Part shown: in pieces, positions 2,447 to 42,572 of the stretch
Numbering within the stretch: position 1 is the first letter of the stretch
Layout: each line of letters opens with the position of its first letter
Assembly: GCA_964504195.1 (NCBI GenBank)
Contig: CAZDDI010000010.1
Span: 22,956 to 86,955 of the forward strand
Reading direction: 5' to 3'
Length of the DNA: 64,000 nucleotides
DNA from: an uncultured Anaerolineales bacterium
GTDB lineage: Bacteria > Chloroflexota > Anaerolineae > B4-G1 > SLSP01
Made by a program: the position numbers and the translations under genes
The notes under the pieces: generated by a model
Told to the model about the DNA's origin: nothing
Databases searched by the model: none
Seen by the model: only the letters and a program-made list of their open reading frames with translations

Positions 2447-2552
2447 TGTCTGTCACCTTCTTGACTGTGTAACGCGCGCGGCGTTACGGGATAGCTAGGG
2501 CGTAATTCTTGTTCTATACGTTCTTGCAATAACATTTTTATCAATAGAGCTT

Positions 2553-6955: not shown

Positions 6956-6971
6956 AGGTTTCTCCTTTCAA

Positions 6972-7006
6972 AATGGCGAATGGCGAATGGCGAATGGTGA
7001 ATGGCG
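6972..7006. repeat. Heptanucleotide tandem repeat (AATGGCG)x5 with one variant unit AATGGTG.
   Basis: aatggcgaatggcgaatggcgaatggtgaatggcg lies between the two paralogs. Confidence 0.9.
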
Positions 7007-7027
7007 CGCAACGTTCATGCGCTGCGC

Positions 7028-7816: not shown

Positions 7817-7937
7817 ACCTATCTCTATTGCTTGGTTCAGGCGCAACGATCCATGAATAAGCGAGCTACATACTCGGTTGAGTCGTGCCTGGCCCAAAAC
7901 TCGCACTCCGCGTCTTCAGTTTCCAAAAAAAATATCC

Positions 7938-8832: not shown

Positions 8833-9064
8833 ACAAGCAATTGCTCGCTGGTGCTTAGGCAGTTCCAGGATTTAAATCGTCCCAAAATCACCGGAATTCG
8901 TAGGGGAACAAGCAGTTTTTGGGATGATTATTTTCCTGGAATCGCCTTATCTTCAGTGACACTTATTTTGCGCCGCCTAACGCCAAATTTCATCGGGCGA
9001 AAAAGGCGAGCGCAGCTGAACACGGGGGAAGAGCAAGCCATTGTTGGGCATAATTCTCGTGAGA

Positions 9065-9727: not shown

Positions 9728-10074
9728 TTCAGTTCTTTCTCTTGAGGCATCCTAACATCTCGAAATGTTGGTAACGAAGTCTCATCATCTCCTGTCCTGA
9801 TGGCATATCATGTTTTGGTATATTTGACCCACTGGGTTGATTCGGAGATATAAGACACAGATTTTACGGATAAAACGGATTTTTCCGGTTCTTATCCGTA
9901 AAATCCAAGCAAATCCATGTCTTATCAGCATTCTGACGAACCGGTAGCAACTTGGATTAAGCTAGCCGTTTTTGCCTGAACGGCAATGGTCTAGCGCCTC
10001 ATTATACCCCAAACAGAACAGAGGGCGAATCAGCGGGAGAACTTGCAGACAACGTAGTTTGTCCCCCACAAGCT

Positions 10075-12009
10075 TTATGGGCAGGGCATGATTTCAACGG
10101 TACTAATGCAGAATCTGTCTAAATCATCACATCCAGTCGGCGATAAAACGTTGAGGCGTGTGTTATCCACGGGATTATACACGCCTACATAGAGCCGGTA
10201 TTCTCCTGGGAGCGTGTCAAGCGGGATTAGCAACGCATGCCGCTGAAGCACCGACACAGAGGCGTCCCCGTCATTTGGGGCAAGATACAAAGTTATATCA
10301 GCGTCGCTCTGCGCAAGTGGCAGAGTGTCTGGACATCCCAGATGCACAAAGGCTTTGTAGGCGCGTTCGTGGGGCGCGCTGATATGCCAGCGCAAGTCCA
10401 GGCTGAGCACCTCGCCTGGTTGGAGCGAAGTAATAGGCGATACATAATCCAATGCAACCTGATCTTCGTAAACTGCGTGAGCCGACCAAACCAGGGGCAG
10501 CTCACGCGCGCGCACGAATAAGGCCAGTTGTGAATCGCCATACCAGGTATCAAATACAAACACCGCGTACCGATTGAGCCATTCATTAAAGGGATTGCCG
10601 GTGTCATGCACATCGGCAAAATAGTTGACTACCCAAAGCCGTTCATGTGAATCGAATATGTCGCCAAGTAGCTCAGAGACAGTTGCGGGGTCATAGGTGT
10701 TACGATAAAACACCACCGGCAGATGTGGCGCGTAGCTCGCAAAATAGCCATCTTGCCAGACGTAGGTCGCCAGCAGAGCGTCGTTGGGTTGAGCCAGTGC
10801 CTGGACTTCAGCAATGAGCGGGCGATAGTCCTCATCCGCATCAACCGGCCCATGATAAGAGCGGGCTATAGTATGCCCGGTGCTGGTGATGATCAAGAGC
10901 ACTGCGGCCAGGCCGGCCCAAGGCCATCTACGGAGGACATAAGAGGTCCCTAATGCCGTCAACAGTAGCCATAAGGGGACGCCCGGAAACGCGAGCTTGA
11001 TCCCGCGCATGAGGTCTTCATCAGGCGCATACTGCACAAGTGCGATGAGCAGCACCGCGCCTAGCGCGCCAAGTGCAAGCGCGACGGCGGCTGTATGATG
11101 GCGTTTGAACAGCGTCGCCCCACCTAAGAAAGCGAGCAGCGTCAACGCGAGTGTAGCTATTGGGGCGCTCGCATTGCCGCTCGCAGTCCCAATGACAATC
11201 TGCTGGAAAACGGGCAGCATATCTCCTAGAACTTGTAAATTGGGGAGTGGATTCACGCGCTCGGCTTGCAATGAGCGCAGTTGTGAACCGGCATAGAGCA
11301 GCCAGGGTGCCAGAAGCACACCTGCGAGCAGCATTGCAATCAGCCAGCGCTTCAAGATAGTGGATGACTGCCGGTAAGTTAGCAGCAAAGCCGCAGCGTG
11401 GGCCATAGGGAGCAACGCAAAAACGTACTGTGTACTCACCCCCAGGCTGATGCTGAGCAGGTACACCAGCCACCAGATACGCGCTGTCTGCAAATCCGTC
11501 AAGATACGCAGAAAGGCATAGGTGGCGAGCATTGCTAGCAGTATCCCCAAACTGTACATGCGAATCTCGCGGTCATAGTAGAACACAAATGGGGCCACGG
11601 CGCTCAATGTGGCGGCCAGCATCCCGGCGCGTTTGCCATCCAAACGTTGCGCAGTCACATAGAGCAAGGGGATCGTCAGCATACCCGTCAGGACAGAGAA
11701 GAAGCGTGTGCTAAACGGCGATGCGCCAGCCATTGCCATCCAACCATTGAGCAACACATAATACACGGGCGGGTGGACATCGGCAGCGGTGGCGCTTAAG
11801 AGATCGCCTAGCGGCAACTGCGCTACATAGATACTGAAACCCTCATCCCACCATAAGGGTTTTACATCGAGCCGGTAAGTGTAGAGTGTAAAAGCCAGCA
11901 GGCATAGCGCAACACACGCCCCATTGGCGGCCAATCTCCCGGGGGCGATTGCGAGTTGCGCAGCGCGCTTAAAGTTTCTATCCATCTTTTTTGTATGAGC
12001 CTGGATCAT
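10075..12009 (-). CDS. PMT/ArnT-family (GT-C fold) membrane glycosyltransferase.
   Basis: N-terminal region with more than ten transmembrane segments. PLWWDEGFSIYVAQ matches the ArnT/PMT family (a DE in the first loop). There is a soluble C-terminal domain. Confidence 0.65.
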   Translation of the reverse strand: MIQAHTKKMDRNFKRAAQLAIAPGRLAANGACVALCLLAFTLYTYRLDVKPLWWDEGFSIYVAQLPLGDLLSATAADVHPPVYYVLLNGWMAMAGASPFSTRFFSVLTGMLTIPLLYVTAQRLDGKRAGMLAATLSAVAPFVFYYDREIRMYSLGILLAMLATYAFLRILTDLQTARIWWLVYLLSISLGVSTQYVFALLPMAHAAALLLTYRQSSTILKRWLIAMLLAGVLLAPWLLYAGSQLRSLQAERVNPLPNLQVLGDMLPVFQQIVIGTASGNASAPIATLALTLLAFLGGATLFKRHHTAAVALALGALGAVLLIALVQYAPDEDLMRGIKLAFPGVPLWLLLTALGTSYVLRRWPWAGLAAVLLIITSTGHTIARSYHGPVDADEDYRPLIAEVQALAQPNDALLATYVWQDGYFASYAPHLPVVFYRNTYDPATVSELLGDIFDSHERLWVVNYFADVHDTGNPFNEWLNRYAVFVFDTWYGDSQLALFVRARELPLVWSAHAVYEDQVALDYVSPITSLQPGEVLSLDLRWHISAPHERAYKAFVHLGCPDTLPLAQSDADITLYLAPNDGDASVSVLQRHALLIPLDTLPGEYRLYVGVYNPVDNTRLNVLSPTGCDDLDRFCISTVEIMPCP

Positions 12010-22084: not shown

Positions 22085-22364
22085 GTCCGGCTATTATAGC
22101 ACAGGGTCGCTGAGGGTCAAGGGTTCATTCCCCCCAAAGGCAGGTTGCAGTATACACAACTCGCAAGATTTGTCAACCGATACCGCCGTATACAAGTTGC
22201 ATTAATCCCTGCCGCGCCTTTGATAGCTGCAATTGCCCTCAAGGAGCAGCGATGCGATGTTTACCAGCATAATTGCCCGAACAACGCCATGAAAAAGCAA
22301 CCTTGACCCGCTCGAAATCGTGGTACAATAACTTGTGGAAAAATTACCGATAAAGGTGCGTAGA

Positions 22365-23087
22365 ATGAAAACTACGGTGATTGTACCGACGTATAACGAG
22401 AAGGAAAACCTGGAGGCGCTAATCACGCTGCTCCTAGAGTTACCGGTGACAGTTGAAGTTATCGTTGTGGATGATAATTCTCCTGATGGCACTGGCGCGA
22501 TTGCAGATACGTTGGCGGGACAACATCCAGAACGCCTCCATGTCATCCACCGGGCGGGTAAGTTGGGGCTGGGAACCGCCTACATTGCGGGCTTCCAGTA
22601 TGCATTGGCAGAGAGGAGCGATTTAGTCATTACGATGGATGCAGATTTCTCACATCACCCACGTTATATCCCGGCGATGGTAGATAAAATTAGTGTAGGC
22701 TATGATCTAGTCATCGGCAGTCGCTATGTGCGTGGTGGCGGGACGGTGGAGTGTACGTTTCTCCGCAAGTTGCTCAGCTGGGGAGCGAACACTGTGGCTC
22801 GCACGCTCCTGGGGCTACATGCGTACGATGCAACAGCTGGCTTCCGTTGCTATCGCCGTCAGGTATTAGAATCCATTGCCCTCGAACAGATTTTCTCTAA
22901 CGGGTATTCGTTTTTGATTGAGATGTTATATAAGGTACAACGCCGCAAATGGCGTGTGGGTGAGGTGCCGATTGTTTTTCAGAATCGCCAGCAAGGCACC
23001 TCTAAAATCTCCAATAACGAAGTACGTCGGGCGCTCTACACAGTGCTGCGTTTGTTTTGGGAACGCTTACGCGGAGAGCCGGTATGA
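22365..23087 (+). CDS. GT2-family polyprenol-phosphate mannosyltransferase (Dpm1/Ppm1-like). The ORF is open from a GTG at 22335.
   Basis: MKTTVIVPTYNEKENLEALI...VIVVDDNSPDGTGAIAD...ITMDADFSHHP are the GT2 DXD-region motifs typical of dolichol-phosphate mannose synthase. An RBS aaaggtg precedes the ATG at 22365. Confidence 0.8.
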   Translation: MKTTVIVPTYNEKENLEALITLLLELPVTVEVIVVDDNSPDGTGAIADTLAGQHPERLHVIHRAGKLGLGTAYIAGFQYALAERSDLVITMDADFSHHPRYIPAMVDKISVGYDLVIGSRYVRGGGTVECTFLRKLLSWGANTVARTLLGLHAYDATAGFRCYRRQVLESIALEQIFSNGYSFLIEMLYKVQRRKWRVGEVPIVFQNRQQGTSKISNNEVRRALYTVLRLFWERLRGEPV

Positions 23088-24022
23088 CCCACTCGCCACT
23101 CGACGCCAGCGACTGCGAACGCGTATGCTGCAATTTATGCGGAGCAGATGACGCTTTTGTCCGTTTCCCATCCACCCTACCCAACGGCGAACACGACGAC
23201 TGGCGCGCTTATGCCTGCACAAGCAATGGATATGGGCGGCACGGGCCAATTGCACAGTGTCGCCGTTGTGGCCTGGTTTATGCTGTACCTCGCCCTTCCA
23301 CACAGGCAGTGCTAGAAACATACACCGCCGTAGAAGACCCGCTCTACCAGGAAGAGCGAGAGGGACGTGTATTAACATTTGAACATCACCTGCGCCCATT
23401 GGAGCGATTTACCGGGCCGCCAGCGCAACGCCGATTGCTAGACGTGGGGGCCTACACTGGCGTCTTTGTGGAAATCGCTACACGCCACGGTTGGAATGCC
23501 TGGGGCGTAGAGCCAAGCGCATGGGCCGTGGAGCAATCCCGCCAACGGGGGCTGAACATGGTATCGGGCACGCTAGAGACTGCGGGGCTGGATGACAACA
23601 GCTTTGATGTGATTACACTTTGGGACGTAATCGAGCATCTGACAGATCCACAGAGTACGTTACAAGAGGCCTGGCGCATTCTTACACCAGGCGGCGCTTT
23701 GATTGTTCATACGATTGATATGGACAGTGCATTCGCACGAGCGCTAGGGCCACGATGGCCCTGGCTGATGGAAATGCATCTCTACTATTTCTCCCGCCGT
23801 ACATTGCGCGCCATGCTGGAGCAAACTAGCTTTGAGGTAGCCTGGATGGGCGCACAGGGACGTTATCTGCGCGCTGGCTACCTGGCTAATCGGTTAGCAG
23901 CATTGTTTGCGCCATTGGGCCGACCTGTGGAATGGCTCGTCACCACGCTACAGGCACGGCAAATCCCTTTACATGTGAATCTAGGTGATTTGTTTACAGT
24001 GTATGCACGCAAACCGCACTAA
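23084..24022 (+). CDS. Class I SAM-dependent methyltransferase with an N-terminal Cys4 zinc ribbon.
   Basis: CNLCGADD...CRRCGLVYAVP is followed by the SAM motif LDVGAYTGVFVE. Its start overlaps the upstream stop (ATGA), which suggests translational coupling with the GT2 gene. Confidence 0.75.
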   Translation: MTHSPLDASDCERVCCNLCGADDAFVRFPSTLPNGEHDDWRAYACTSNGYGRHGPIAQCRRCGLVYAVPRPSTQAVLETYTAVEDPLYQEEREGRVLTFEHHLRPLERFTGPPAQRRLLDVGAYTGVFVEIATRHGWNAWGVEPSAWAVEQSRQRGLNMVSGTLETAGLDDNSFDVITLWDVIEHLTDPQSTLQEAWRILTPGGALIVHTIDMDSAFARALGPRWPWLMEMHLYYFSRRTLRAMLEQTSFEVAWMGAQGRYLRAGYLANRLAALFAPLGRPVEWLVTTLQARQIPLHVNLGDLFTVYARKPH

Positions 24023-24289
24023 GGGTCTGTAAAAGTATAGTTTCCCGCTACAACCGCCCCCGGGACGGGGGCGGAGAGCAAAAAAGCCCCCCGTGCTACC
24101 GGCTACTGAAACATACACTCGCCTGCCCATCCTTGGCGGCATTCCCTTGACCCGGTACCCTCTTCGTCGTTCTCAGTCTGCGGAAAAATGATACGCCCCA
24201 TACACGCCTCTTCTGTTGACCTTAACCCAGTTGCATACTATAATGGACTTATCAGTCCTTTGATAGTAATATGATTGTGAGGTCATACC

Positions 24290-27200
24290 ATGATCCAAAT
24301 AAGCGCTTACTCAAAAAAATTCCCCATTATTATACTCGCCTTGATTTTGGGAGCTTTCTTACTGGCCTTGCCGCTACTTCTGATACAACCAGCCCAAAGT
24401 GCCGCGCCCATTGATACGTTACCCCATCCTGAATCCCAGAGCACCTGGCTAATCCTTGATAAAACAGGGCCAGACACCACTTACGCCGGAGATCCGGTGC
24501 GTTACACAATCCGATTGACCAACACTTCAGACAGTGAGTTGACCAACGTGGTGTTGACCGATACCTGGACAACCCGTATCCCGTCGGCACAGGATAGGGA
24601 AGCGACGTGGTTACGGGGTATTCTAGCGCTCTATAACGGTGATTACACGGTCAATCCACCTGACGCAGTGAACTATCACACCTATGGTTCCTATGTAAAC
24701 TTGCGTAAGGGAGAAGCTTACTGGCATCTCAACCCAATTCCTGCCGGGCAATCCGTGGAAATTGTGTTGACAATGACTACCCCAATCACACTTCAACCAG
24801 CTTTGAACGGGCATCTCCCGTGGGGGCGTGTAGGGCCGTCGAATGTGGAAAATTCCATCGTAGCGGGAGCACCAGGCCGTGGGAATGTTGAAGGTCCGGT
24901 TGTTACTTCATTGGTGGTAGGGCCATTACTGCAACTGACCAAAACCGCCGTAGGCGAAGCAGCACCGACCGGGCAAACCCGGGTTGGCCGGCTCGTGACC
25001 TATACTATCCAGATCCAAAATGTCACGGCTGAAGGTAGTTTTCAACGCCCTGATGCCGTAGCAGCTCAAAACCTCGTGGTTTGGGATGAAATCCCTATTC
25101 AGCTGCAGGGAACAACTTACCTAACCTATAGCGCCAGTCAGCCGGGCGTGGTAATACATTATAATACAACCGGATACACGCTGACCTGGACTTTCCCGGA
25201 GAGTTTCGCGCTGCAACCAGGAGAAAACACCCATGTGTATTTCACCGCTCGCGTGCCGGCAGGTACAGCTTATAATCCCACCACCAATTTGATTAATGCT
25301 AAAAACAAATTGTTAGCAATTGCTGATACCATGCTAAAATCAGCTAACTTGGCATCCGATTTGAGATCGCGGGTACTTAGTCCCTTTGATAAGACAGTGG
25401 CTGCGTCCACGCCACCCGCACAAGCGAATTACACCTATCCCAACCGCATCGTCACCTACACGGTCACTATCTATAACCCTCTGCAAATTGACATCCATGA
25501 TATGGTGTTTACAGATACGCTCAATATTGTCTCTGGAGCAACCTACGCAAGTATGGTACAAGGCCCAGCCCCAGTCTCTGGTGGCAGTAGCCCGCGGTGG
25601 GAGGGTTTATCGTTACCGGCCAATGGAGCAATCACTTTGATCTTTCGAGCTTTCATCCCACCGGATGTACCACTAGGGCCGCTCGGAACCACTTGTCGTA
25701 ATGCGAGTTATTTCAATGGCGTAATGGCCGCACATCCGGCTTTCCCGGTCGTCTACGTTGGGCATGATAATAACGCCTTAGCACGTTTATATGTCGTACC
25801 GCAATTGCAAATGTCCAAAACAGTTACCCCGACTACACAAATCCCCGGTGAATCGGTGGTTTACACCATTCAGTTACAAAATGTGGGCGATACTGACATT
25901 CCAACGCCCCTTATCATCACCGACACCCTGCCCCTATTTTTCACCTATGAACACATGGTCTCAACAGCTCCACCTGGCGAACCTGCTGTAAACGATAATG
26001 TCCTAACCTGGAATGATGTGCCGGGGATTCCGGCGGGACAATCTATCTCTTTCTCATTTAGTGCCATAACTGGAGGCCTCTCCGGGGTTGGTTATAAGAA
26101 TGTTGTTTCCGGCTACAATGCAGAAACCTCAGTGTGTACTATTTCTAGCGCCGAAGTCAAACTGGAAATACCCATCACCAAGGTCGTTTCTCCAACCACG
26201 GTTATCCAGGGAGAGATTGTGCAATATCAAGCCATGCTCCAAAACGCTTCGACGCAGGATTATGTAGTTACAGATTTCAAAGACATCTTGCCAACTGGTT
26301 TTGTGGCTGCCAGTAACCTGAACGATGTTTACGAAATCACCTACGATCCGCCGTTTACATTACCATCCAATCAAACCCTAACGGAACAATTTGATGTATT
26401 GGTGCGCGGCTCTGGTGTTGGCACTACATGGTGTAATGCTTCTTATCCCTCACGAGAAGTCTGGCAAGATAAAGGCAAGTTCGGATTCAACATACAGGAC
26501 ACGGGATGGGCCTATAACACCGTCAAACAAGCCATGGTTGAGGTTATTCCTCAAGGGTATCTGCTCCAAACGAGCCACCCACAGCCGGTGGCAGTGAATG
26601 ACACTCTCGTATTGACCCTGACTTTACAGGACAATCGGATTGATCCGGTTACTCCTTTGGCTGGCATTCACTTGAAATGGACCGTGCCTAGCTACGGCTC
26701 CGGCGATGCGCAAGAAATATTCACGCTTCTCGCCAGTTCCCTGCCCCCCGCTGAGTCATCCGCCCCACCTATCTATTACTGGGAGGGCCTTGAAATACCG
26801 CTTGCCGGCCAGCTACACATTATTTTGGAATTACGCGCACCACAACCCAACAACGATGATTGGGCACGCGACTACACCAGTACAGCTGAAGTGCTCACGC
26901 TTAATGATATGAATATCTGCATCCCCCGCTCTTCTTATAAAATCAAAGTCGTCCGCGGCATCGAAATTATCAAGACACCTTCACCCTCTCAAGTTGGGCC
27001 TTATGGCATTGTGCAATACACCTTGCGCGCCAACAATCTTACCGGCGCGCCGGTATCGAATGTCGTACTTACCGATGTATTGCCCCCGGGCTGGGAATTT
27101 ATAGCACTGGTGAGTGGGCCACCTCCTACTGCCACAACCCCTTTGGTCTGGCACTTGGATACTATTCCCGCCCTAAGCGAGATCGCCATCAAATTCACCG

Positions 27201-29002
27201 CACGCGCCTATACATCGGTAGGGGGAGAGATTAATAAAGTAGCAGGCCTTGCGCCCATCAATCTAGGGTATCATAAAAATTACACTAATACGGTGCGAGT
27301 ACAAGTGGTTTCAGGGGTAGGATTTTTCAAAACGGCCAACCCGAATGCGGTCAATGCGGGAGATTTAGTTAATTACACTATTACGCTTTACAATGGTGTT
27401 CCTAACAGTGAAAAGATGAGCAACATCATCATCACCGATACACTGCCGGCATATTTTACCTTTGTAAGAATGCTGGAAGGGCCGGCACCCAAACTACTGG
27501 CGGGGAATGAACTACGCTGGGACACGCTGACTACATTAAACAATGGGCAACGTCAGATATTACGCTTTGAAGTGCGGGTTGCCGAGGATGCGCGCACGGG
27601 CAACTATTACAATCAAATTATTGGCGAAGCGCGCAGTAGTAGCGGCGTCCCCCTCACGATTCCACCCTCTGGCCCAACTGCCCCTGTCTACGTTTCAGGA
27701 TTGCCTTCTATTCAGGTGAACAAACAAGTATCTCCTAATGCTGTACGTGCCGGTAATTCAGTGACCTATACCCTGACGCTCTACAATGAAGCAGAGGGAT
27801 CTTACGCCGTAGTAGTGACCGATACGTTACCCTACTCGCTCACCTTTGAAACAGCTTTAGGCTCCCCCCAGCCTACCGTCATTCCCGGGCCACGCGAGCG
27901 CGTGGTCTGGTCTGGCTTCGACTTGGCACCTGGTGAAACGCGGACGTTGACCTTCCGTGCCAGCGTAGACCGGCGAACCCCCAATGATGTTTACTGTAAC
28001 GATGTGCAGGTCAAAATGGGCGAATGGATTCTGCCGCCACACCTGGGATTGGCCTGTTTGAACGTTTCAGCTATCCCACGGGTGGATGCACAAATCAGTA
28101 AAGATGATGGGGTCACGCAGGTGGCAGCCGGGGATAGACTGACCTATACCATCCGCTATACCAACAGTATAGACTCCGAAGCTGCACTTTATAACGTAGT
28201 CCTCACCGAGACCATTGCCCCGCTTGCTTATCTCACTGTTTTGGAACACCCGAACTGGTTGCCGCTGGGGGAAGGGCGTTACCGCCTGGAAGTGAGCGAG
28301 CCGCTGTCACCTGGAGTTTCCGGAGAAGTGCTATTTGTGGTAGATCTACAACAAAGCGTCCCGCTGACCGAGGTACTGTCAGTGCATAATCGTGTTGAAA
28401 TCGGTTATACGACGCTAGAAGAGACAGTAGAGGCCACTCCGGATGACAACATTGCCGAAGACATCAATCTCTGGCAAGGGCCGGATATCATCATTACCAA
28501 CTTATGGTTTGAGCCAGCTAATCCCCTAATCGGAGAGCCATTGGCAGTTCACATTGAATTGACCAATCAGGGTACTTCGAATATAGACCGTCGTTATGAT
28601 GGAAGCACCGACCCCGGCTGGTGGCTCTTCGTCACAGAGCTGTACTTGAAGAACACTTCTTTTGTCCCGGCTGGCCCGCCGACAGGGGTCTTTGATCATA
28701 TCGGGGGGTATTGTCCCGATGCAGCTTGTTCCGCAACTCGAGGTGAATACCTGGTATGGCCTAACACCCTCGCGGCTGGTGAATCGCGCCAGTTCACATT
28801 CAACATTACTGCCCCAAACGCAGGAGTTTATAGCGTATACGTTCAAGCCGATGTTACTTGGCTTAATTGGCGAGGCGGAAAGGACTATGGGTTAATCCTA
28901 GAAGCCATCGAGGACAATAATATTTACAGGGGATCTGACTTGGTCATTTCAGGATCTGTTATAGGGCGTAAGGTTTACTTACCACTCATTTTACGCCATT
29001 GA
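24290..29002 (+). CDS. Giant (1570 aa) secreted/cell-surface protein with many DUF11 (conserved repeat domain) repeats.
   Basis: Signal peptide or transmembrane N-terminus. Recurrent DUF11 hallmarks include VVLTDTWTTRIP, FTDTLNIV, IITDTLPLFFTYEHM, VLTDVLPPGWEF, IITDTLPAYFTFVRM and VVTDTLPYSLTFE. GC content is lower than in flanking DNA. Confidence 0.8.
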   Translation: MIQISAYSKKFPIIILALILGAFLLALPLLLIQPAQSAAPIDTLPHPESQSTWLILDKTGPDTTYAGDPVRYTIRLTNTSDSELTNVVLTDTWTTRIPSAQDREATWLRGILALYNGDYTVNPPDAVNYHTYGSYVNLRKGEAYWHLNPIPAGQSVEIVLTMTTPITLQPALNGHLPWGRVGPSNVENSIVAGAPGRGNVEGPVVTSLVVGPLLQLTKTAVGEAAPTGQTRVGRLVTYTIQIQNVTAEGSFQRPDAVAAQNLVVWDEIPIQLQGTTYLTYSASQPGVVIHYNTTGYTLTWTFPESFALQPGENTHVYFTARVPAGTAYNPTTNLINAKNKLLAIADTMLKSANLASDLRSRVLSPFDKTVAASTPPAQANYTYPNRIVTYTVTIYNPLQIDIHDMVFTDTLNIVSGATYASMVQGPAPVSGGSSPRWEGLSLPANGAITLIFRAFIPPDVPLGPLGTTCRNASYFNGVMAAHPAFPVVYVGHDNNALARLYVVPQLQMSKTVTPTTQIPGESVVYTIQLQNVGDTDIPTPLIITDTLPLFFTYEHMVSTAPPGEPAVNDNVLTWNDVPGIPAGQSISFSFSAITGGLSGVGYKNVVSGYNAETSVCTISSAEVKLEIPITKVVSPTTVIQGEIVQYQAMLQNASTQDYVVTDFKDILPTGFVAASNLNDVYEITYDPPFTLPSNQTLTEQFDVLVRGSGVGTTWCNASYPSREVWQDKGKFGFNIQDTGWAYNTVKQAMVEVIPQGYLLQTSHPQPVAVNDTLVLTLTLQDNRIDPVTPLAGIHLKWTVPSYGSGDAQEIFTLLASSLPPAESSAPPIYYWEGLEIPLAGQLHIILELRAPQPNNDDWARDYTSTAEVLTLNDMNICIPRSSYKIKVVRGIEIIKTPSPSQVGPYGIVQYTLRANNLTGAPVSNVVLTDVLPPGWEFIALVSGPPPTATTPLVWHLDTIPALSEIAIKFTARAYTSVGGEINKVAGLAPINLGYHKNYTNTVRVQVVSGVGFFKTANPNAVNAGDLVNYTITLYNGVPNSEKMSNIIITDTLPAYFTFVRMLEGPAPKLLAGNELRWDTLTTLNNGQRQILRFEVRVAEDARTGNYYNQIIGEARSSSGVPLTIPPSGPTAPVYVSGLPSIQVNKQVSPNAVRAGNSVTYTLTLYNEAEGSYAVVVTDTLPYSLTFETALGSPQPTVIPGPRERVVWSGFDLAPGETRTLTFRASVDRRTPNDVYCNDVQVKMGEWILPPHLGLACLNVSAIPRVDAQISKDDGVTQVAAGDRLTYTIRYTNSIDSEAALYNVVLTETIAPLAYLTVLEHPNWLPLGEGRYRLEVSEPLSPGVSGEVLFVVDLQQSVPLTEVLSVHNRVEIGYTTLEETVEATPDDNIAEDINLWQGPDIIITNLWFEPANPLIGEPLAVHIELTNQGTSNIDRRYDGSTDPGWWLFVTELYLKNTSFVPAGPPTGVFDHIGGYCPDAACSATRGEYLVWPNTLAAGESRQFTFNITAPNAGVYSVYVQADVTWLNWRGGKDYGLILEAIEDNNIYRGSDLVISGSVIGRKVYLPLILRH

Positions 29003-29027
29003 AAGTCACAGCAAAAAGGAAACCATC

Positions 29028-29573
29028 ATGAGTACAAAATTTAGGTTTTGCAGTTTAATATGCATTATATTAGCCGTAACCTTAATAATACTTACTACAC
29101 CCAGTGTTAGTAGCGTTATGGCACAAGACCCGCCAACAGATCCACCACCACCAACGGCCATACTGCCAACAGCCATACCACCAACAACCGTGCCGCCGAC
29201 AGAACCGCCCACACCGGTGCCGCCAACAGCCATACCACCGACAGCTGTGCCGCCAACAGCCGTGCCGCCAACAGCCGTACCGCCGACAGCCGTACCGCCG
29301 ACAGCCGTGCCACCGACAGCCGTGCCACCGACAGCCGTGCCACCGACAGCCGTGCCACCAACAGCCGTGCCGACCACGCCAACCGAATCACCACCACCAC
29401 CACCAGCGCCCGCTGAGCCTACTGCGCCGGCAATTGCCCCGCAAGCAGCCGAGAATCATCGCTTACCTCAAACCGGCCTGCTTGAGGGATTCACGGTGAT
29501 TGGATTGGGACTGGCAATTATCATGCTGGCATTTGCGACCATGCGTCGGCATCGCACAAACAGCGAACAGTAA
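29028..29573 (+). CDS. LPXTG-motif cell-wall-anchored Pro/Thr-rich repeat protein, a likely sortase substrate.
   Basis: Signal peptide, a (PTAVP)n linker, then LPQTG followed by a hydrophobic segment and the basic tail RRHRTNSEQ. Confidence 0.8.
   Translation: MSTKFRFCSLICIILAVTLIILTTPSVSSVMAQDPPTDPPPPTAILPTAIPPTTVPPTEPPTPVPPTAIPPTAVPPTAVPPTAVPPTAVPPTAVPPTAVPPTAVPPTAVPPTAVPTTPTESPPPPPAPAEPTAPAIAPQAAENHRLPQTGLLEGFTVIGLGLAIIMLAFATMRRHRTNSEQ
29150..29390. repeat. 15-bp tandem repeat array of about 12 units encoding (PTAVP)n within the LPXTG protein gene.
   Basis: Units such as ccgccgacagccgtg / ccaccgacagccgtg repeat. The protein segment is PTAIPPTAVPPTAVPPTAVPPTAV... Confidence 0.85.
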
Positions 29574-29745
29574 ATCCTTCAGTTTACAGCAGGGGGCAGC
29601 GCAACTGCCCCCTGCTGTGTTATTGCACACCGTCCACCATCCGACTTCCCTTTTTTGCGATTTTGTGCTACAGTGAGTAGGAAGAATTTGTGAACGGCAG
29701 AGACTAAACGCCGACACGCTACAGGATTCCACGGGAGAAGCGAAC

Positions 29746-31290
29746 ATGACTACCTTCTTACGATTCTTGTTTTTGATAGGTTACGCCATCGGCGTATATT
29801 TTATCCACCGCTACCTGCGCGCCCACCCGCCCAAGTTCGATGGGGAATTTGTATTTCCAGAGTCACGCCCCTTCAAGGCGTCCTGGTATATGGGACTCCC
29901 CCTGCTCTGGCCGCTCCTGGCGCTATTCTGGCTAAATCAGCCCCCCACTTCCCCAGGACTGTTGATCTATTTATTTATCATCGTACCGCCGCTGGTCATC
30001 TTTTTGCCCTGGCTCTGGTATTGGGGCGTACGCCCGCCATTCGTTGTTTTGCTGTTTACCGCCCTGCTCCTGTTAGTGCTACCCTTATTGATAACTGCCA
30101 CCCTCTTTTTGATAGACGGTGTGCGCATCACTATCGGCGTGCTGCCGATGCTCTTCTTCATGCTCGCGCCGCCAGCCTTTATGCTGCTCTTGGTATACCT
30201 GTGGGGCCCGCAAATTCTACCGCTCAGCCCGGAAGAGCAGCGCGCGCACCGGGGCGATATCGCCAAACTTTTCGCGGCCTTCTGGACAACCTTCGCCAAG
30301 CCCTCTATCGTTGTTGTCAATGCGGAGGCTCAAACACGCGTCGCTGGCAACCCGTTCCTAGGTATCGCACCGGGGCTACTAGTAACGGAACCGGAAAACG
30401 CCGTGATTCTACGCGATGGCTCTAAAATCGCCGCAATCATGGATCCGGGCGTTCATTTTGTCGGCTACACCTCCGCGAATCTCGTGCATGAGGTACTAGA
30501 CCTGTTCAAACAATTCCGCTCGGAGCCGAAGGTGGAAGCCATCACCAAAGACGGTATCCATATTCACGTTCCTATCTCCTCAATTTTTTCTATTGGAGGT
30601 GTCCGTCCGCCAGAAAAGCCAGGCGAATCCTGGCGCTATCACAAGAGCGCCGCGTTCAAAGCCTTTATGGCGCAAGAAGTCAACCCTACCGGGCGCACCC
30701 CTCTCGACGCACATCAGGTACGCTCATGGAAGGACATTCCCTTGCAAACTGTGATCCCCTATCTAAAACAACGGATTGCCGGATATACGCTAGATGAATT
30801 ATACGGTGCCAAAGAACCTTCATCACCGAAACTATTGCGCATAGTATTGGGGCAGGAAATGCAGACCTACACAAAAGCTCAAACCACACGCAGCGGCATT
30901 GAGGTGAGCGGCGGTGGCATGGGTAACAAGGTCAGCCCAGTGGATCATAAGGTCGTCGAACAGCGCATGGACGCCTGGAAAGCCCGGAAGACACATGAGA
31001 GCCTCGTGCGGAAAGGACAAATAGAAGCCACCTATCTCACGCAGCTGGGACGCGTGCGCAGCAAAATGCTTGAGGAAATCCTACAACAAATCAAGAGACA
31101 TGCGCAAGAATTGGAAAATGTACCTACCGAAAAACGCGACAGTATGCTCAAGATGATGAGTGCCGTACGTTTAATAGAAACGCTTGACGCGATCGCTCGT
31201 GACCCAGCTGTAGAACCACTCTTACCAGAAACAGTAGCCCAACGGATGCTGGCCTTACGTAAACAACGCGAAGAAGGGGGTAAAGCATGA
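29746..31290 (+). CDS. SPFH/band-7 (flotillin-like) membrane protein, paralog 1.
   Basis: Polytopic N-terminus, then an SPFH-like core: AVILRDGSKIAAIMDPGVHFVGY...EAITKDGIHIHVPISSIF. The C-terminal region is helical. Confidence 0.6.
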   Translation: MTTFLRFLFLIGYAIGVYFIHRYLRAHPPKFDGEFVFPESRPFKASWYMGLPLLWPLLALFWLNQPPTSPGLLIYLFIIVPPLVIFLPWLWYWGVRPPFVVLLFTALLLLVLPLLITATLFLIDGVRITIGVLPMLFFMLAPPAFMLLLVYLWGPQILPLSPEEQRAHRGDIAKLFAAFWTTFAKPSIVVVNAEAQTRVAGNPFLGIAPGLLVTEPENAVILRDGSKIAAIMDPGVHFVGYTSANLVHEVLDLFKQFRSEPKVEAITKDGIHIHVPISSIFSIGGVRPPEKPGESWRYHKSAAFKAFMAQEVNPTGRTPLDAHQVRSWKDIPLQTVIPYLKQRIAGYTLDELYGAKEPSSPKLLRIVLGQEMQTYTKAQTTRSGIEVSGGGMGNKVSPVDHKVVEQRMDAWKARKTHESLVRKGQIEATYLTQLGRVRSKMLEEILQQIKRHAQELENVPTEKRDSMLKMMSAVRLIETLDAIARDPAVEPLLPETVAQRMLALRKQREEGGKA

Positions 31291-32714
31291 CCCGCACCAC
31301 TGACCGCCTTGACAATTTAACCCTCCCTTTGTTGATAGTAATAGTTGCCACATTAGTGTTTTCCGTGCTATATATTGTGGCGATGCCCGAATCACTAGAC
31401 GGTGTAAAACTAGCCCTAAGCCGCTATGGCGAAACACGCAACCCTATCACTTTGCTGATCACGCTAGGAATGGCCTTTTTGAACAGCAGAGCCTTCGCAT
31501 TTATGCTGGTTATGATCCTCGCCTGGTTCTCAGCGCATCTGTTACTAGGCCAATATCTGCAACAGCTTTATGCACTCACCTGGGAGGATACCTTGGGCGT
31601 GACCGAGGCAGCCGACAGAAACGCTGACTCACCAACGCGAGCGTCTGGCCTATTGTTTCGCATTCTCTACGGGCTGCCAGAGGAACCACCTTTTGCGCCA
31701 ATCCTTGGCGCACGCGAAGGGCAAGTAGACCCGGACGGGCCAGAAATTATGCGCAAGGTGGGCGGGCCAGGCTTCCTCAGCATAGGCCACGATACCGCCG
31801 TCGTCATCGCGCGCGGGGGTACAATTATTAACGTGCTAGGCCCTGGTTGGCATCGCGTCGGCCCCTTCGAGCGGATATGGGATGTAGTAGACTTACGCCC
31901 ACAACGCCGCAATCTACATGTAGAAACGCACTCGCGTGACGGCATCCCCATCTATTGCGATGCCGAAATTCTTTTCCGGCTCGACAACGGCGAAGAACCG
32001 CCCGAAGAAACAGAAACTTTCGACTATCCGTACCCCTTCACCGAGAAGGCTGCCGATAATGTGTTGAAAGTAACCGCCGGAAAAGTCGTGCTCAAACCGG
32101 GGGGCAAACGCTTCACCGATTGGAGCACACGCATGCCCAACGGCATCCTTGACGGGGTCATCCGCAACACCATTGAACAGTACCGACTGGATGAGTACCT
32201 CACCCCCGCCGATAACGGCGAACCGCTTTTTGCCAAGTTGGAAAGAGACATCGAAAAGCAAGTGCGCGAGGATGGCCTCAAGGCAGGGGCACGGGTATTA
32301 CGTGTCACGCTTGGGCCAATCCTCCCGATGGAAGAAGCGATCTCGCAACAATGGGTGGAATCCTGGCGTTCCGAGTGGGATATGGCTACGCACGAACTAG
32401 AAGCTGAAGCCAAAGCTCTGGGCACAGAGGCCATCAAGAAAGCCCGCGTTCTCGCACAAGCAGACCTGGTTACTACAATCATGGAAGGGTTGCGCGATTT
32501 CGATACGGTTGACCCCAACCTGCAAGAGACAATCATTATGATGCGCTTTATGGACGCAATGCGGTCGCTGGCAGAAACGGATCCGCTCGTGCGGGGGCTG
32601 ATGTTCAAAGAGGCTGAAGGCCTACAGCGCATCATCAAGACCATGACAGAGATTACGCAGCAGCCATCGCCCCCACCACAGCTGCAGCTGCCACCCACAA
32701 ATCCTGATCTGTAA
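31287..32714 (+). CDS. SPFH/band-7 (flotillin-like) membrane protein, paralog 2.
   Basis: AVVIARGGTIINVLGPGWHRVGPFERIWDVVDLRPQRRNLHVETHSRDGIPIYCDAEILFRL is an SPFH core. There is a flotillin-like EA-rich coiled coil, ELEAEAKALGTEAIKKARVLAQADL. A 4-nt overlap (ATGA) joins it to paralog 1. Confidence 0.65.
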   Translation: MTRTTDRLDNLTLPLLIVIVATLVFSVLYIVAMPESLDGVKLALSRYGETRNPITLLITLGMAFLNSRAFAFMLVMILAWFSAHLLLGQYLQQLYALTWEDTLGVTEAADRNADSPTRASGLLFRILYGLPEEPPFAPILGAREGQVDPDGPEIMRKVGGPGFLSIGHDTAVVIARGGTIINVLGPGWHRVGPFERIWDVVDLRPQRRNLHVETHSRDGIPIYCDAEILFRLDNGEEPPEETETFDYPYPFTEKAADNVLKVTAGKVVLKPGGKRFTDWSTRMPNGILDGVIRNTIEQYRLDEYLTPADNGEPLFAKLERDIEKQVREDGLKAGARVLRVTLGPILPMEEAISQQWVESWRSEWDMATHELEAEAKALGTEAIKKARVLAQADLVTTIMEGLRDFDTVDPNLQETIIMMRFMDAMRSLAETDPLVRGLMFKEAEGLQRIIKTMTEITQQPSPPPQLQLPPTNPDL

Positions 32715-32764
32715 AATTTATCGGCAAGTGCATTGCACCACAGGGACTCACATGGAGGGTCAAT

Positions 32765-33631
32765 ATGAGCCGTATCTTCATCCCGGAAGAGCTCACGCTA
32801 TTGCATCTAGTCGCCTTTCCTGACGCAGTAACTCTTCCCTTCCGCACTCTGCACGAAGCGCTACACATAGAGATGCTGCGCGGCGATAGCCGAGAGGCTA
32901 AAAAGGCCGCTGAAAACCTGGAACGCATCGCCAGCAGCGCAGGGGAAACGTACATCGCGGCCCTGGCACACCTCTATCTCGCCGATGTCACGCGCCACCA
33001 ACATACCACTGCGCTTAGAACGCTCACCCGCGCCGTGACCAGCCTTCACAATGAAAGCCGTGCCATCGCCCGCTATAATGAAGCCCTGGGCTACTACCTG
33101 CAAGGTATCATTCATTGCGCCAGAGACAAAGACGCTGAGGTAAGCCAGTCTTTTGGACGTGCCACGCAATTGCTGGAACAAGCACGTCACCGAGAATCCT
33201 TTTTTGGCGCCCACCCGCGTAGCCCCGATATTGAAAAACTTATCCGCTGGATGACCGAGCTATTGATGCTAGGCATCAATACGCGCAATTTGAACATCGC
33301 GCCACTCTACGAACCAGCCGAGAATGGCACATTGCAATTCTGCGGCGCCACCGCCATTGACACCGGCGAAATCGAGCTACCTCGCTCCACCCTTCCCCCA
33401 CTTGAGGAAACCTACTTTGTGATCGAGTTGCCCCCCGCGCCCGCCAGTTCCAGCTTGGAAATCGCCGCTCCCAAACGGCGCTATTTAATCAAGCCTGTCT
33501 GGGGTGAAGACCCCCAAAGCGTCCCCAAACTGGATCAGTATGGGCGTTTCCGCCCTGGCGAACGCCGTAGCTTTGAGTTCGAGACTGATGACAGAATCAC
33601 GCTAGGAGACTTCGCCGGCATGATTCTGTAA
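32765..33631 (+). CDS. Hypothetical protein; helical N-terminal half and beta-rich C-terminal half.
   Basis: No motif recognised. The ORF has high coding potential and sits in the operon-like array. Confidence 0.5.
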   Translation: MSRIFIPEELTLLHLVAFPDAVTLPFRTLHEALHIEMLRGDSREAKKAAENLERIASSAGETYIAALAHLYLADVTRHQHTTALRTLTRAVTSLHNESRAIARYNEALGYYLQGIIHCARDKDAEVSQSFGRATQLLEQARHRESFFGAHPRSPDIEKLIRWMTELLMLGINTRNLNIAPLYEPAENGTLQFCGATAIDTGEIELPRSTLPPLEETYFVIELPPAPASSSLEIAAPKRRYLIKPVWGEDPQSVPKLDQYGRFRPGERRSFEFETDDRITLGDFAGMIL

Positions 33632-33638
33632 CGGAGGT

Positions 33639-34580
33639 ATGCAGATGAGCAAAAGCGAGCATCACGCCATCGTTATCGGCGCGGCAGGCTTTGATATCAA
33701 GGTCTGGCCGCAAACGCTGGCCGTCGAGCCGGGGCAATCCAACCCGGCGCACATCCAGTGGAGCGCCGGCGGTGTGGCCCGCAACATCGCTGAAAACCTC
33801 ACGCGGCTGGATACCGAAGTGCATCTCATCACCGCTGTGGGCAACGACCGCGCCGGTGAAGATTTGCTGGCCGAACTCGAGCAGTTGGATATTGACACGT
33901 CCGCCTCAGCAATCTGTGAAGACCAGCACACAGCGGCTTATGTAGCGCTCTACCAGGCCGACGGGCAGTTGCGCCTGGCCTTCGATGACATGGTGGTAGC
34001 CCGCGCCATCACGCCCAAGCATCTCATACGCAAGCGCAGCCTCTTCAAACAGGCTGACATCATCTGCATTGATGCCAACCTGACCGCCCGCGCGCTGGAG
34101 ACGATCTTCCGGCTGGCCCGCGAGTATCACGTCCCCGTGTGCGCCGATCCTACGGCGGCGCTACTCGCGCCGCGCCTGCACCCCTACATCAATGAGCTCG
34201 CCGCGCTCACGCCCAACCGGCTCGAGGCCGAAGCATTGTTGGGCGAGGCGCTACTCGATGAAGAAAGCCTGATGCGCGGCGCGCGCCGCCTGGTGCAGTT
34301 GGGCGCACAGCTGGCCGTCATCAACCTGGGGGCGCAAGGCTTGTGCTACGCCACCAGCGAGGAGAACGGACGTTTACCCGCGTTCAAAGTCGAGACGATA
34401 GACACCAGCGGCACCGGCGATGCGCTTACCGCTGCCATCGCCTACAGTCTCATGGAAGACCTCCAGCCAGCCGAAGCCGTGCGCCTGGGCCTCGCCGCCG
34501 CCGCCATGACCGTCTCTTGCAGCGGCAACGTTTGCCCCACGCTCAGCGTGGATGGCCTGTACGATTGGTTGATTGTGTAA
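33639..34580 (+). CDS. PfkB-family carbohydrate/nucleoside kinase (ribokinase / pseudouridine-kinase-like).
   Basis: N-terminal IGAAGFD and C-terminal DTSGTGDALTAAIA match the PfkB DTxGAGD signature. Confidence 0.75.
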   Translation: MQMSKSEHHAIVIGAAGFDIKVWPQTLAVEPGQSNPAHIQWSAGGVARNIAENLTRLDTEVHLITAVGNDRAGEDLLAELEQLDIDTSASAICEDQHTAAYVALYQADGQLRLAFDDMVVARAITPKHLIRKRSLFKQADIICIDANLTARALETIFRLAREYHVPVCADPTAALLAPRLHPYINELAALTPNRLEAEALLGEALLDEESLMRGARRLVQLGAQLAVINLGAQGLCYATSEENGRLPAFKVETIDTSGTGDALTAAIAYSLMEDLQPAEAVRLGLAAAAMTVSCSGNVCPTLSVDGLYDWLIV

Positions 34581-40940: not shown

Positions 40941-42305
40941 ATGACATCAGTAAAACTAAGAGGCGCTCAGCGCAAGAATATCGTTCCGATGTTGTTAACG
41001 CTGGCCCTCCTGCTACTGCTTGTGGTGATTGCTGTGATGGCCGGATTACTCCTGCTCTCGCAGGTACGCGCTGCGCTTTTCGGCGACAGCTCCTTCCCCG
41101 GTCTGCCGGGCGGCACAGTCAGCCAAAACGTGGAGTACCGCTTCGGCAATCCGCTGCCGGTGTGGACAAGTGAAGATACGGTGACGGTATTGCTGCTCGG
41201 CATTGATCAGCGCCGTGATGAACCCGGCCCTTGGCGCACCGATACGATGATGCTCCTCACACTTGATCCTAAGACAATGCGCGCTGGCGTGCTCTCTATC
41301 CCCCGCGACCTCTGGGTCCCTATTCCGGGCTACGGCGACGGGCGCATCAACACGGCCCATGTACAGGGCGAACTCTATAACCACCCCGGCGGGGGCCCCG
41401 CCCTGGCCCGTGAAACAGTCGAGTACAATCTGGGCATCCCGATAAATTACCATGTGCGGGTCAATTTTGATGCTTTCGAGAAGCTGGTGGATATGATCGG
41501 CGGCATTGATATTTACGTTGAAGAAACTATCAATGATCCACTCTACCCGGATCACCACTACGGTTACGATCCGCTGTATATCGAAGCCGGCTGGCAACAC
41601 TTCAACGGGGAACTAGCGTTGAAATATGCGCGCACCCGTCACGGCAATAGCGACTTTGATCGCGCCCGCCGCCAGCAACAGGTGCTCCTCGCTGTGCTGG
41701 AGAGAGTGACTAGCTTGCAACTATTACCACAAATCGCAGGACGCTCCAGCGAAATCTACCAGATGTTCCAGGATTCAGTGGAGACCAATCTGGCGATGGA
41801 TCAGATTCTCGCCCTGGCAGGCGTCGCCATCAAGGTAGAGCGTCCCAACATCCGCTTCGCGGTCATTGATCGCCAGGCAACCCAAAACTGGGTGACGCCG
41901 CAGGGCGCACAGGTGTTGATCCCACTCCGCGAGGAAATTCGGCGGCTGCGCGATTACATTCTCTGGACCGACGGCGTCATTGCAGATGTACCACTCCAAC
42001 AGGCTCCGCCAGAAGCGGCCACGATAGCTGTGCTTAACGGCACATCGCGCGCGGGGCTGGCCGGTTCTACCGCCGCCTATCTACAAGGGCTGGATATTCC
42101 CGTGTCTGCTTATGCCAACGCCGACCGTGACTCTTACGGAGCATCGCAAATCATCCTCAACCGCGATACGCCTGTGCGTGCAGCCCAATTGCTCAATGTG
42201 CTGGGTTTACCGCCGACTGCGTTACTGCGCGGCAGCGAAGCCAACGCCGCTTATGATATCGTTATCATTCTGGGTGCGGATTACATCGGCCCGCCCGCGC
42301 CGTAG
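40941..42305 (+). CDS. LytR-CpsA-Psr (LCP) family cell-envelope phosphotransferase with a LytR_C-like C-terminal domain, paralog 1.
   Basis: N-terminal transmembrane segment. LLLGIDQRRDEPGPWRTDTMMLLTLDP...LSIPRDLWVPIPGYGDGRINTAH are LCP core motifs. Confidence 0.85.
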   Translation: MTSVKLRGAQRKNIVPMLLTLALLLLLVVIAVMAGLLLLSQVRAALFGDSSFPGLPGGTVSQNVEYRFGNPLPVWTSEDTVTVLLLGIDQRRDEPGPWRTDTMMLLTLDPKTMRAGVLSIPRDLWVPIPGYGDGRINTAHVQGELYNHPGGGPALARETVEYNLGIPINYHVRVNFDAFEKLVDMIGGIDIYVEETINDPLYPDHHYGYDPLYIEAGWQHFNGELALKYARTRHGNSDFDRARRQQQVLLAVLERVTSLQLLPQIAGRSSEIYQMFQDSVETNLAMDQILALAGVAIKVERPNIRFAVIDRQATQNWVTPQGAQVLIPLREEIRRLRDYILWTDGVIADVPLQQAPPEAATIAVLNGTSRAGLAGSTAAYLQGLDIPVSAYANADRDSYGASQIILNRDTPVRAAQLLNVLGLPPTALLRGSEANAAYDIVIILGADYIGPPAP

Positions 42306-42414
42306 CAACTGCTACACCGGTGGACTTTTCCACCGCAGAGAATGCAAAAGAAAGAAGCCGCTGTGATTTTTGCACCCTTCGTAGTGAAAAGTCTCCTTGT
42401 GGTATAATCCTATT

Positions 42415-42548
42415 CAATGTCATTACGTTTAGGACATAGACTTGGCAGGTTTCAAAGCCTTGAGTTTACAAGAAATCGTTATTCACCGGTAAAATCCCAC
42501 CCAATCCAATTTGGGCGAAACCTGCCAGGTCTTAACTTAATGACATTG
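42415..42548 (+). mobile_element. Complete MITE-like element of 134 bp. The TIR pair is caatgtcatta / taatgacattg. It is flanked by the 9-bp direct repeat aatcctatt (42406-42414 and 42550-42558). Internally a 16-bp arm pair can form a long hairpin: agacttggcaggtttc ... gaaacctgccaggtct.
   Basis: Seen directly. It sits 25 bp upstream of the LCP paralog 2 start codon. Confidence 0.7.
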
Positions 42549-42572
42549 CAATCCTATTGAGTGTAATCAGCT

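Follow-up and report, generated by a model that had tools for sequence, protein, structure and literature searches.

Conserved pairing of a YLP-box CLIPPER-domain protein gene with a gene for a small proline-rich LPXTG-type protein in Anaerolineae

We analyzed a 64,000-nucleotide stretch of DNA from an uncultured Anaerolineales bacterium (contig CAZDDI010000010.1, positions 22,956 to 86,955 of the forward strand), hereafter the window. At 24,290 to 29,573 it carries two neighboring genes, one for a long protein of the DUF11/CLIPPER family, which we call the rod, and one for a small Pro/Thr-rich protein with an LPXTG-type sorting signal, which we call the partner. The identical contig is also present in JGI metagenome 3300033177. 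A preliminary description of this DNA had noted an open reading frame (ORF) of 1570 aa with DUF11 repeats and a small one 25 bp on. Both ORFs are real; they encode 1570 and 181 aa on the plus strand and are spaced by 25 bp. The features of the locus, in window coordinates, are as follows.

24216..24244, plus strand: promoter-like site, TTGACC-17 nt-TATAAT, 46 bp 5' of the rod start codon
24279..24282, plus strand: ribosome-binding site GAGG of the rod gene, 7 nt 5' of the ATG, read from the sequence
24290..29002, plus strand: rod protein gene (DUF11/CLIPPER family), 1570 aa, from the ORF call and family hidden Markov model (HMM) matches
24290..24403, plus strand: predicted signal peptide of the rod, residues 1-38, read from the sequence, with predicted cleavage between ...PAQSA and A
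24437..28474, plus strand: ten tandem CLIPPER-like immunoglobulin-like (Ig) domains, residues ~50-1395, recognized by ten copies of a core strand motif
28475..28951, plus strand: C-terminal CARDB-like beta-sandwich ending with a conserved E-x-NNI motif, with a weak CARDB match at residues 1492-1522
28973..28999, plus strand: YLP-box VYLPLILRH, a putative sorting motif at the extreme C-terminus of the rod, from NCBIfam HMMs
29017..29020, plus strand: ribosome-binding site AGGA of the small gene, inside the 25-bp gap, 7 nt before the ATG, from reading the sequence
29028..29573, plus strand: gene for the small Pro/Thr-rich protein with LPXTG-type signal, 181 aa, from the ORF call
29028..29123, plus strand: predicted signal peptide of the small protein, residues 1-32, read from the sequence, cut between ...SVMA and QD
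29147..29372, plus strand: pentapeptide array of 5-6 degenerate units and then 9 perfect PTAVP, from Tandem Repeats Finder and a unit table
29463..29555, plus strand: sorting signal, read from the sequence, of LPQTG (29463-29477), hydrophobic helix (29478-29543) and RRHR (29544-29555)
29580..29632, plus strand: terminator-like hairpin, a 15-bp GC-rich stem followed by UGUUAUU, from folding against shuffles

The simplest reading of this layout is a single two-gene transcription unit. A simple terminator scan found no terminator-like site in the gap between the two genes. The hairpin 3' of the small gene, which the same scan did not list, folds with a minimum free energy of -32.8 kcal/mol (z-score -6.06), and none of 200 shuffles folded equally well. 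The promoter-like site matches the consensus at 11 of 12 positions and is the top sigma-70-like site within 23900-29900. However, the number of such sites in the region is not above that of shuffled sequence, and the site is therefore suggestive only.

The pairing is conserved. Orthologous loci were collected from species-representative genomes, metagenomes and an exact protein look-up, about 1.25 Mb in total, and were dereplicated by the last 60 residues of the giant protein; one locus, L049, was corrected by hand. The class of giants of about 1550 aa comprises 30 distinct loci from Anaerolineae and Thermoflexales. A complete small partner is encoded just downstream of the giant in 20 of these and a partner truncated by the contig end in 5 more. 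A second YLP-box giant of 2250-2500 aa replaces the partner in three of the 30, and two have neither. Among giants longer than 1700 aa, 2 of 15 have the partner. The two genes are usually 3-150 bp apart, although 400 bp separate them at L049, and the pairing is kept at seven loci where the other neighbors differ (L002, L005, L009, L024, L027, L028 and L033). The two genes had been taken as a module from the window alone, and the relatives bear this out as a conserved unit. In some lineages the giant persists with no partner beside it, so that it can function by itself.

Departures from the common arrangement take more than one form. The second YLP-box DUF11 giant of 2250-2500 aa stands at the partner position in L007, L013, L026 and L061. 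At L020, three genes in a row encode a YLP-box protein of 1161 aa, a partner of 294 aa and a giant of 2145 aa.

The rod protein is built of known parts. It matches the Pfam family DUF11, renamed CLIPPER (PF01345), with an E-value of 4.6e-53 over five stretches, TIGR01451 (E 1.4e-46, six stretches) and the isopeptide-forming fimbrial domain TIGR04226 (69 bits, cut-off 30). We found 46 homologues with 71-100% length coverage and 34-59% identity; roughly 35 are full-length proteins of 1530-1602 aa. Those with names are all from Anaerolineae, Anaerolineales, Thermoflexales or Chloroflexota metagenome-assembled genomes. Orthologues share the N-terminal architecture of the window protein. Signal peptides, already proposed for both proteins of the pair, are predicted from a reading of the sequence, in which each N-terminus runs from basic to hydrophobic residues and on to an AxA-type site. 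The core strand motif occurs in ten copies, one per about 125-150 residues, and a triad of Lys, Asp or Glu, and Asn is present in nine of the ten domains. A phmmer search of the whole rod against PDB sequences returned no match, and a single-domain profile was therefore needed. This profile matches the solved CLIPPER domain of PDB 9IFR (E 1.9e-4), whose bond-forming Lys and Asn align with K1145 and N1237 of the rod and the Asp of whose TDTL-like motif aligns with D1178. Among PDB entries the profile best matches GhpA (9flp), the grappling-hook protein of Aureispira, in its DUF11 part.

The fate of the triads in orthologues is informative. Across 29 orthologues, the triad is invariant in domains 3, 7 and 9 (29/29) and nearly invariant in domains 5 and 8. 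In domain 2 it is intact in 16 and replaced by three hydrophobic residues in 13, with no mixed case; domain 4 gives 24 intact, 5 all hydrophobic and again none mixed; and domain 10 has 17 intact, 9 with all three replaced and 3 mixed. That triad residues are kept or lost together points to functional internal isopeptide bonds. In the window rod, nine of the ten CLIPPER domains probably carry such a self-formed Lys-Asn bond as a lock. All invariant Lys residues of the rod orthologues belong to triads.

Structure prediction of the DUF11 repeats, which had been suggested as a check, gave AlphaFold models that are all-beta, with predicted local distance difference test scores (pLDDT) near 90 and Ig-like matches. 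The model of residues 38-365 (pLDDT 90.1) contains two Ig-like N-terminal domains, a pair that resembles the isopeptide-bonded C-domains of antigen I/II proteins at template modeling (TM) scores of 0.5-0.57. Residues 1240-1570 were modeled at a pLDDT of 89.9. The C-terminal sandwich region is matched by 241 representative proteins at E<=1e-10, and Foldseek with the C-terminal model retrieved generic tandem beta-sandwiches only (transglutaminase C-domains and integrin legs, TM ~0.3). Neither family HMMs nor models nor fold matches detected a lectin, thioester or other ligand-binding tip domain on the rod, and the family HMM scans reported no SLH or other known S-layer anchoring domain.

The rod had been described as lacking an obvious anchor. 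This does not hold, because its C-terminal end, ...GRKVYLPLILRH, scores above the cut-offs of both NCBIfam models curated as "YLP-box putative sorting motif": 16.8 bits on NF050076 (cut-off 15) and 13.7 bits on NF053834 (cut-off 10). These short models gave no report on the full-length rod, and the scores come from the isolated tail. Neither L1564 nor P1565 varies among 29 full-length orthologues, and 41 of 45 distinct homologue tails match a YLP-box model. In the model of residues 1240-1570 the last ~16 residues are unstructured with low pLDDT, which suggests that the YLP tail is flexible and exposed. In distant DUF11 giants of other phyla this position is taken by an LAxTG, LPxTG or PEP-CTERM-like tail, and the YLP-box thus occupies the place of a sorting signal. 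Literature searches for the YLP-box or YLPLVLR-type strings found nothing relevant. Unrelated ORFs in the fetched loci also bear the motif. In the window, a second YLP-box, IYLPVVLRYSAR, closes a 1060-aa secreted protein (2943-6125, minus strand) that has PLD-like domains, two in number, together with a beta-helix region and is unrelated to the rod; this protein is followed by an 82-aa ORF and gyrA, with no LPXTG-type partner after it.

Several known systems resemble the rod. The CLIPPER adhesin stalks (PDB 9IFR; PMC12617251), for which the isopeptide chemistry has been demonstrated (PMC12617251), are likewise long secreted proteins with CnaA-like Ig domains in tandem, with bond Lys and Asn at the positions of K1145 and N1237, with an aligned TDTL Asp and with a C-terminal sorting element. 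However, their anchors are OmpA-like, LPXTG or archaeosortase signals where this rod has a YLP-box, and the rod has no detected adhesive tip and is paired with a small LPXTG-type partner gene. In Litorilinea, also of the Chloroflexota, the 49-domain DUF11 protein GhlA forms bead-on-a-string filaments of ~180 nm, as established experimentally (PMC13319060). GhpA (Aureispira, 9flp) and GhlA are alike in being DUF11 bead-on-a-string surface filaments, a likeness to the rod at the single-domain level only: they have about 5900-6600 aa, 49 domains, a terminal hook and form multimers, whereas the rod has 10 domains and gives no evidence of a hook or oligomer. Scaled from the GhlA filament, the eleven domains of the rod would extend over about 40 nm. 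By fold, the two N-terminal domains find their best specific match in the C-domains of streptococcal antigen I/II proteins (SspB 2wza, SpaP 3opu, AspA 4ofq), which are Ig-like with intramolecular isopeptide bonds. Identity to these is 8-12%, however, and those adhesins are LPXTG-anchored, with Ala-rich and Pro-rich arms and a V-domain. As for the tail, proteins assigned to NF050076 and NF053834 share with the rod the passing of both cut-offs, the placement at the extreme C-terminus and the occurrence on unrelated secreted proteins of the same organism. We conclude that the rod adds a new member to the CLIPPER/DUF11 class of surface proteins, assembled from known parts and without the tip typical of a fibrillar adhesin.

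The partner is of a different kind. Family HMM scans gave no match for it. Its array had been taken for a perfect 15-bp repeat, which is true of the protein (9 x PTAVP) but not of the DNA. Tandem Repeats Finder reports a period of 15, 15.3 copies and 81% matches; units vary at synonymous sites, and the longest run of identical DNA units is 3. The C-terminal signal seen at first reading is there in full, LPQTG followed by 22 hydrophobic residues and RRHR, and with its signal peptide the protein has the architecture of a sortase substrate: signal peptide, LPXTG-like motif, hydrophobic segment and basic tail. Its tail falls below the cut-offs of the LPXTG models, with 14.0 bits on TIGR01167 (cut-off 15.9) and 19.2 bits on PF00746 (cut-off 20). 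After the signal-peptide and sortase cuts, the predicted mature protein would have 117 residues, of which 39% are Pro, 19% Thr and 16% Ala; Lys, Cys and aromatic residues are absent. Such a chain is unable to form a folded domain. A polyproline-II helix rises about 0.31 nm per residue, and a thread of this residue count would be about 36 nm long.

A homology search with the partner returned only unrelated proteins with PPTAVPPTAIPP-type (PTAVP-like) linkers. Since sequence search gave no true homologues, the partner family is defined by position and architecture. An exact-sequence look-up, which is blind to variants, placed the identical 181-aa protein on 5 assembled contigs. Sixteen distinct partner tails could be compared. 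P-x-T-G, one Leu of the helix and one Arg are invariant among them, and a second adjacent Arg is present in at least 90%; the first motif position takes L, M or V (for example MPVTG, MPRTG and VPKTG). TIGR01167 matches 10 of the 16 at E<=1, the best at 1.7e-4. Upstream of PxTG, what the partners have in common is limited to composition, a signal peptide and, in most cases, Gln as the predicted first residue of the mature chain. All LPXTG-type ORFs in the ~1.25 Mb are this partner, except for a few frames that are clearly spurious. Absence of the signal from orthologues had been named beforehand as a possible refutation, and P-x-T-G was found in 16 of 16 tails.

Partner length varies between near-identical strains. 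Partners of 144, 152 and 154 aa (L047, L050 and L048) differ in the number of PPPTT and TAEPPAP units, those of 170, 175 and 178 aa (L070, L005 and L053) again in unit number, and others are 185 aa (L052, L066) against 204 aa (L057). The suggestion that the array is a hotspot of length variation is thus supported by close strains of other species. Two further regularities were seen. The predicted mature chain of most partners opens with Gln and then P-T-P, and the hydrophobic segment of L005, L016, L024, L028, L033 and L052-L074 is Gly-rich, with G-x-S/V-G-W-x-W-G-G-x-G-L-G in many.

In being small, with PxTG, a hydrophobic helix and a basic tail, the partner resembles LPXTG sortase substrates (TIGR01167, PF00746). 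It differs in having no folded domain at all, in the choice of L, M or V at motif position 1 across the family, and in that a cognate sortase was not found. Small glycosylated sortase substrates exist, for example Actinomyces oris GspA, and the partner is like these in being a small protein dominated by a probably glycosylated region, as predicted here, with LytR-CpsA-Psr (LCP) family genes in the window. Small sortase-anchored holders or spacers of a fibre or layer are also known, among them the long chaplins of Streptomyces and FctB-like basal pilins. These have folded or amyloid fibre-binding domains or a linkage Lys, whereas the partner has neither.

No sortase signature was found among window ORFs by the TLxTC pattern or by phmmer with S. 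aureus SrtA, and PF04203 is absent from the precomputed Pfam tables for the covered parts of the window and 7-10 kb past each end (about 17-20 kb outside the window). This agrees with the initial remark that the window has no sortase gene. Pattern and phmmer also gave none in about 1.25 Mb from about 70-77 related loci, nor did the Pfam tables for the loci from the exact look-up; the search covered these loci and not whole genomes, and the pattern and the SrtA query are insensitive to distant sortase classes. Almost nothing was found in the literature on sortases, sortase substrates or C-terminal sorting signals in Anaerolineae or Chloroflexota. Some genes of Chloroflexota genomes carry a sortase-family annotation. 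That PxTG is so strictly conserved, and at a constant spacing from the helix, argues for its being read by some enzyme.

Taken together, we favor, with some reserve, the reading that the operon yields two co-expressed envelope components, an isopeptide-locked rod with a YLP-box and a polyproline thread linked to the wall in sortase fashion. Both would be exported by Sec. The domains of the rod would then lock themselves through Lys-Asn bonds, and the YLP-box would direct it to its place by a route that we leave unspecified. The thread would probably be O-glycosylated on Thr next to Pro, as the GT2, PMT_2 and two LCP genes in the window suggest. A sortase-type transpeptidase would cut it between T and G of PxTG and link it to peptidoglycan. 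The two could together make a surface fibre or outer layer with a wall-spanning spacer.

Several points weigh against this reading. That rod and thread touch is conjecture, and the giant occurs without the partner in L003 and L025 and with a second giant in its stead in L007, L013 and L026. The sorting role of the YLP-box is a curator's proposal, and the motif comes without a membrane-spanning segment. No sortase gene was found in the window, in 7-10 kb beyond each of its ends or in about 70 related loci, the range of the search, and the tail of our small protein is itself just under the TIGR01167 and PF00746 cut-offs. The genes near the module that could serve glycosylation belong to generic families. 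Finally, the distinct adhesive tip expected of a fibrillar adhesin is not seen on the rod, and the rod offers no invariant Lys outside the triads to accept a sortase link.

It is possible, though not probable, that the products are independent surface proteins which share an operon for co-regulation only or are adjacent by common descent. Each is equipped with a full set of export and sorting signals, some lineages do without the partner, and the order of an SPFH pair and PfkB beside the giants is conserved too, probably by descent alone. This reading fits less well with an adjacency that survives at the seven loci (L002 to L033) where all other neighbors differ, with gaps as small as 3-30 bp and with the lack of any other LPXTG-type gene in 1.25 Mb of related loci.

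A stronger form of the co-expressed pair would be a physically coupled fibre, in which the wall-anchored thread is the tether or receptor of the rod and the YLP-box is a docking or ligation signal. This is a specific version of the idea, raised in the preliminary description, that the small protein serves as a stalk. We regard it as somewhat unlikely. The partner lacks both a Lys and a folded domain through which it could bind, Gln is predicted as its first mature residue, the giant persists without it in several lineages, and other YLP-box proteins have no adjoining partner, as is the case for most giants above 1700 aa and for the PLD-like protein at 2943-6125. In favor are the tight and deeply conserved adjacency of the two genes, the exposed and flexible YLP tail in the model, and the estimated lengths of rod and thread, which would be similar. 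A partner without a folded domain or other visible function also makes a structural or tethering role plausible. Less likely again is that the YLP-box, by docking or ligating the isopeptide-locked rod to the thread or to an outer envelope layer, represents a new sorting pathway unlike the sortase, exosortase and rhombosortase signals.

We likewise find it unlikely that the small protein is no sortase substrate but is held in the membrane by its C-terminal helix with a Pro-rich ectodomain, its PxTG being read by another enzyme or by none. That P, T and G stay invariant at a fixed distance from the helix while the sequence upstream drifts is the pattern expected of enzyme recognition, and the LPXTG anchor model matches 10 of 16 tails. 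What speaks for a membrane-held protein is the absence of a sortase from the sequence examined, the sub-threshold HMM scores of the window tail, motifs such as MPVTG, MPRTG and VPKTG that depart from classic LPXTG, and a searched literature nearly empty on Chloroflexota sortases.

Base composition had suggested a separate evolutionary history, the module being called AT-rich against flanks of 65-70% GC. The module is indeed lower in GC, at 51.1%, but its 5-kb flanks are at 53.6% and 55.9% and the whole window at 56.7%; the nearest 1-kb bins above 63% GC lie at 12-13 kb and 34-37 kb. GC at third codon positions (GC3) is 0.51 for the rod and 0.46 for the small gene, below the window gene mean of 0.64 (standard deviation 0.10), but these are not the lowest values in the window. 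Ribosomal-protein and NusG genes are low as well (0.53-0.58), and low GC3 may go with high expression. We therefore consider a recently acquired, horizontally transferred island very improbable, in spite of the module's lower GC and GC3. The GC dip is small, genes at 8-10 kb have lower GC3 (0.43-0.44), no mobility gene adjoins the module in the window, and all homologues found are from Anaerolineae or Chloroflexota. In relatives with a giant of only 35-50% identity, the module stands between the same neighbors, and this conservation of neighboring genes disfavors recent acquisition. Across the window, 1-kb bins span 44% to 70% GC. The lowest-GC patch, 8001-10000, has 44-46% GC and a GC3 of 0.43-0.44 and carries alpha/beta-hydrolase and peptidase S51 genes.

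A sortase-assembled pilus of Gram-positive type with the small protein as basal pilin, for which the TIGR04226 match and the proline-rich tails of basal pilins such as FctB might be cited, can be dismissed, since the large subunit ends in a YLP-box instead of an LPXTG signal and has no conserved free Lys of the pilin-motif kind, the small protein lacks both an Ig domain and Lys, and a class C sortase gene was not found close by at any of more than 50 loci.

The pairing of a YLP-box rod with a domain-less LPXTG-type polyproline protein is not described in the literature we searched. Little has been worked out about how Chloroflexota make and decorate their unusual, multilayered envelope, and the attachment of surface proteins in this phylum is almost unstudied. 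The locus offers a compact, conserved test case, in which an abundant-looking YLP-box rod, a minimal LPXTG-type spacer and natural variation in repeat length come together. It bears on the YLP-box as a sorting signal, on the enzyme that reads it and on whether spacer length sets envelope geometry. Were the two genes merely co-regulated, the locus would be an ordinary member of the CLIPPER surface proteins.

The surroundings of the module hold several genes of possible relevance to the envelope. Directly upstream (22335-24022, plus strand), a GT2 gene of the PpgS, AglJ and ArnC-like type overlaps the start of a class I methyltransferase gene. The GT2 product resembles polyprenyl-phosphate-sugar synthases, and a 69% identical copy stands directly before the giant in the closest relatives, L022 and L035. 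A PMT_2 GT-C glycosyltransferase related to protein O-mannosyltransferases and ArnT (10075-12009, minus strand) is a candidate for glycosylating the Pro/Thr repeats. Two tandem LCP genes lie 11 kb downstream of the module (40941-43910, plus strand), and at L002 an LCP pair 53-57% identical to them (2631-5352) is 5-7 kb from the giant. LCP enzymes transfer glycopolymers onto the wall and, in Actinomyces, act in the glycosylation of a sortase substrate. Immediately downstream of the module (29746-34580, plus strand) are two SPFH/Band_7-like paralogues of 514 and 475 aa, a 288-aa protein without a family match and PfkB. The same set adjoins giants in L003/L004, L007, L013, L020, L025, L026 and L030 and may owe this place to shared descent or to a functional tie with the envelope proteins.

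Other genes of the window were noted in passing. Tandem paralogues of 268 and 292 aa (6149-7906, minus strand), without a Pfam or NCBIfam match, share a near-identical C-terminus, ...LELLIFSQYGEYLPGTNYPVPQPVLKFTLPE[A/T]YR. A gene of the release-factor-like baeRF_family10 lies at 54157-55260 (plus strand), and at L003 (15240-16343) a baeRF_family10 gene directly follows the giant; it does so throughout the partner-less L003/L004/L011 lineage, where a DDE transposase also adjoins. At the start of the window (1-2900), plus-strand ORFs at 11-1117 and 1664-2197 have odd GC by codon position, as if they were antisense artefacts of gyrA, a minus-strand gene in the gene table for the matching contig.

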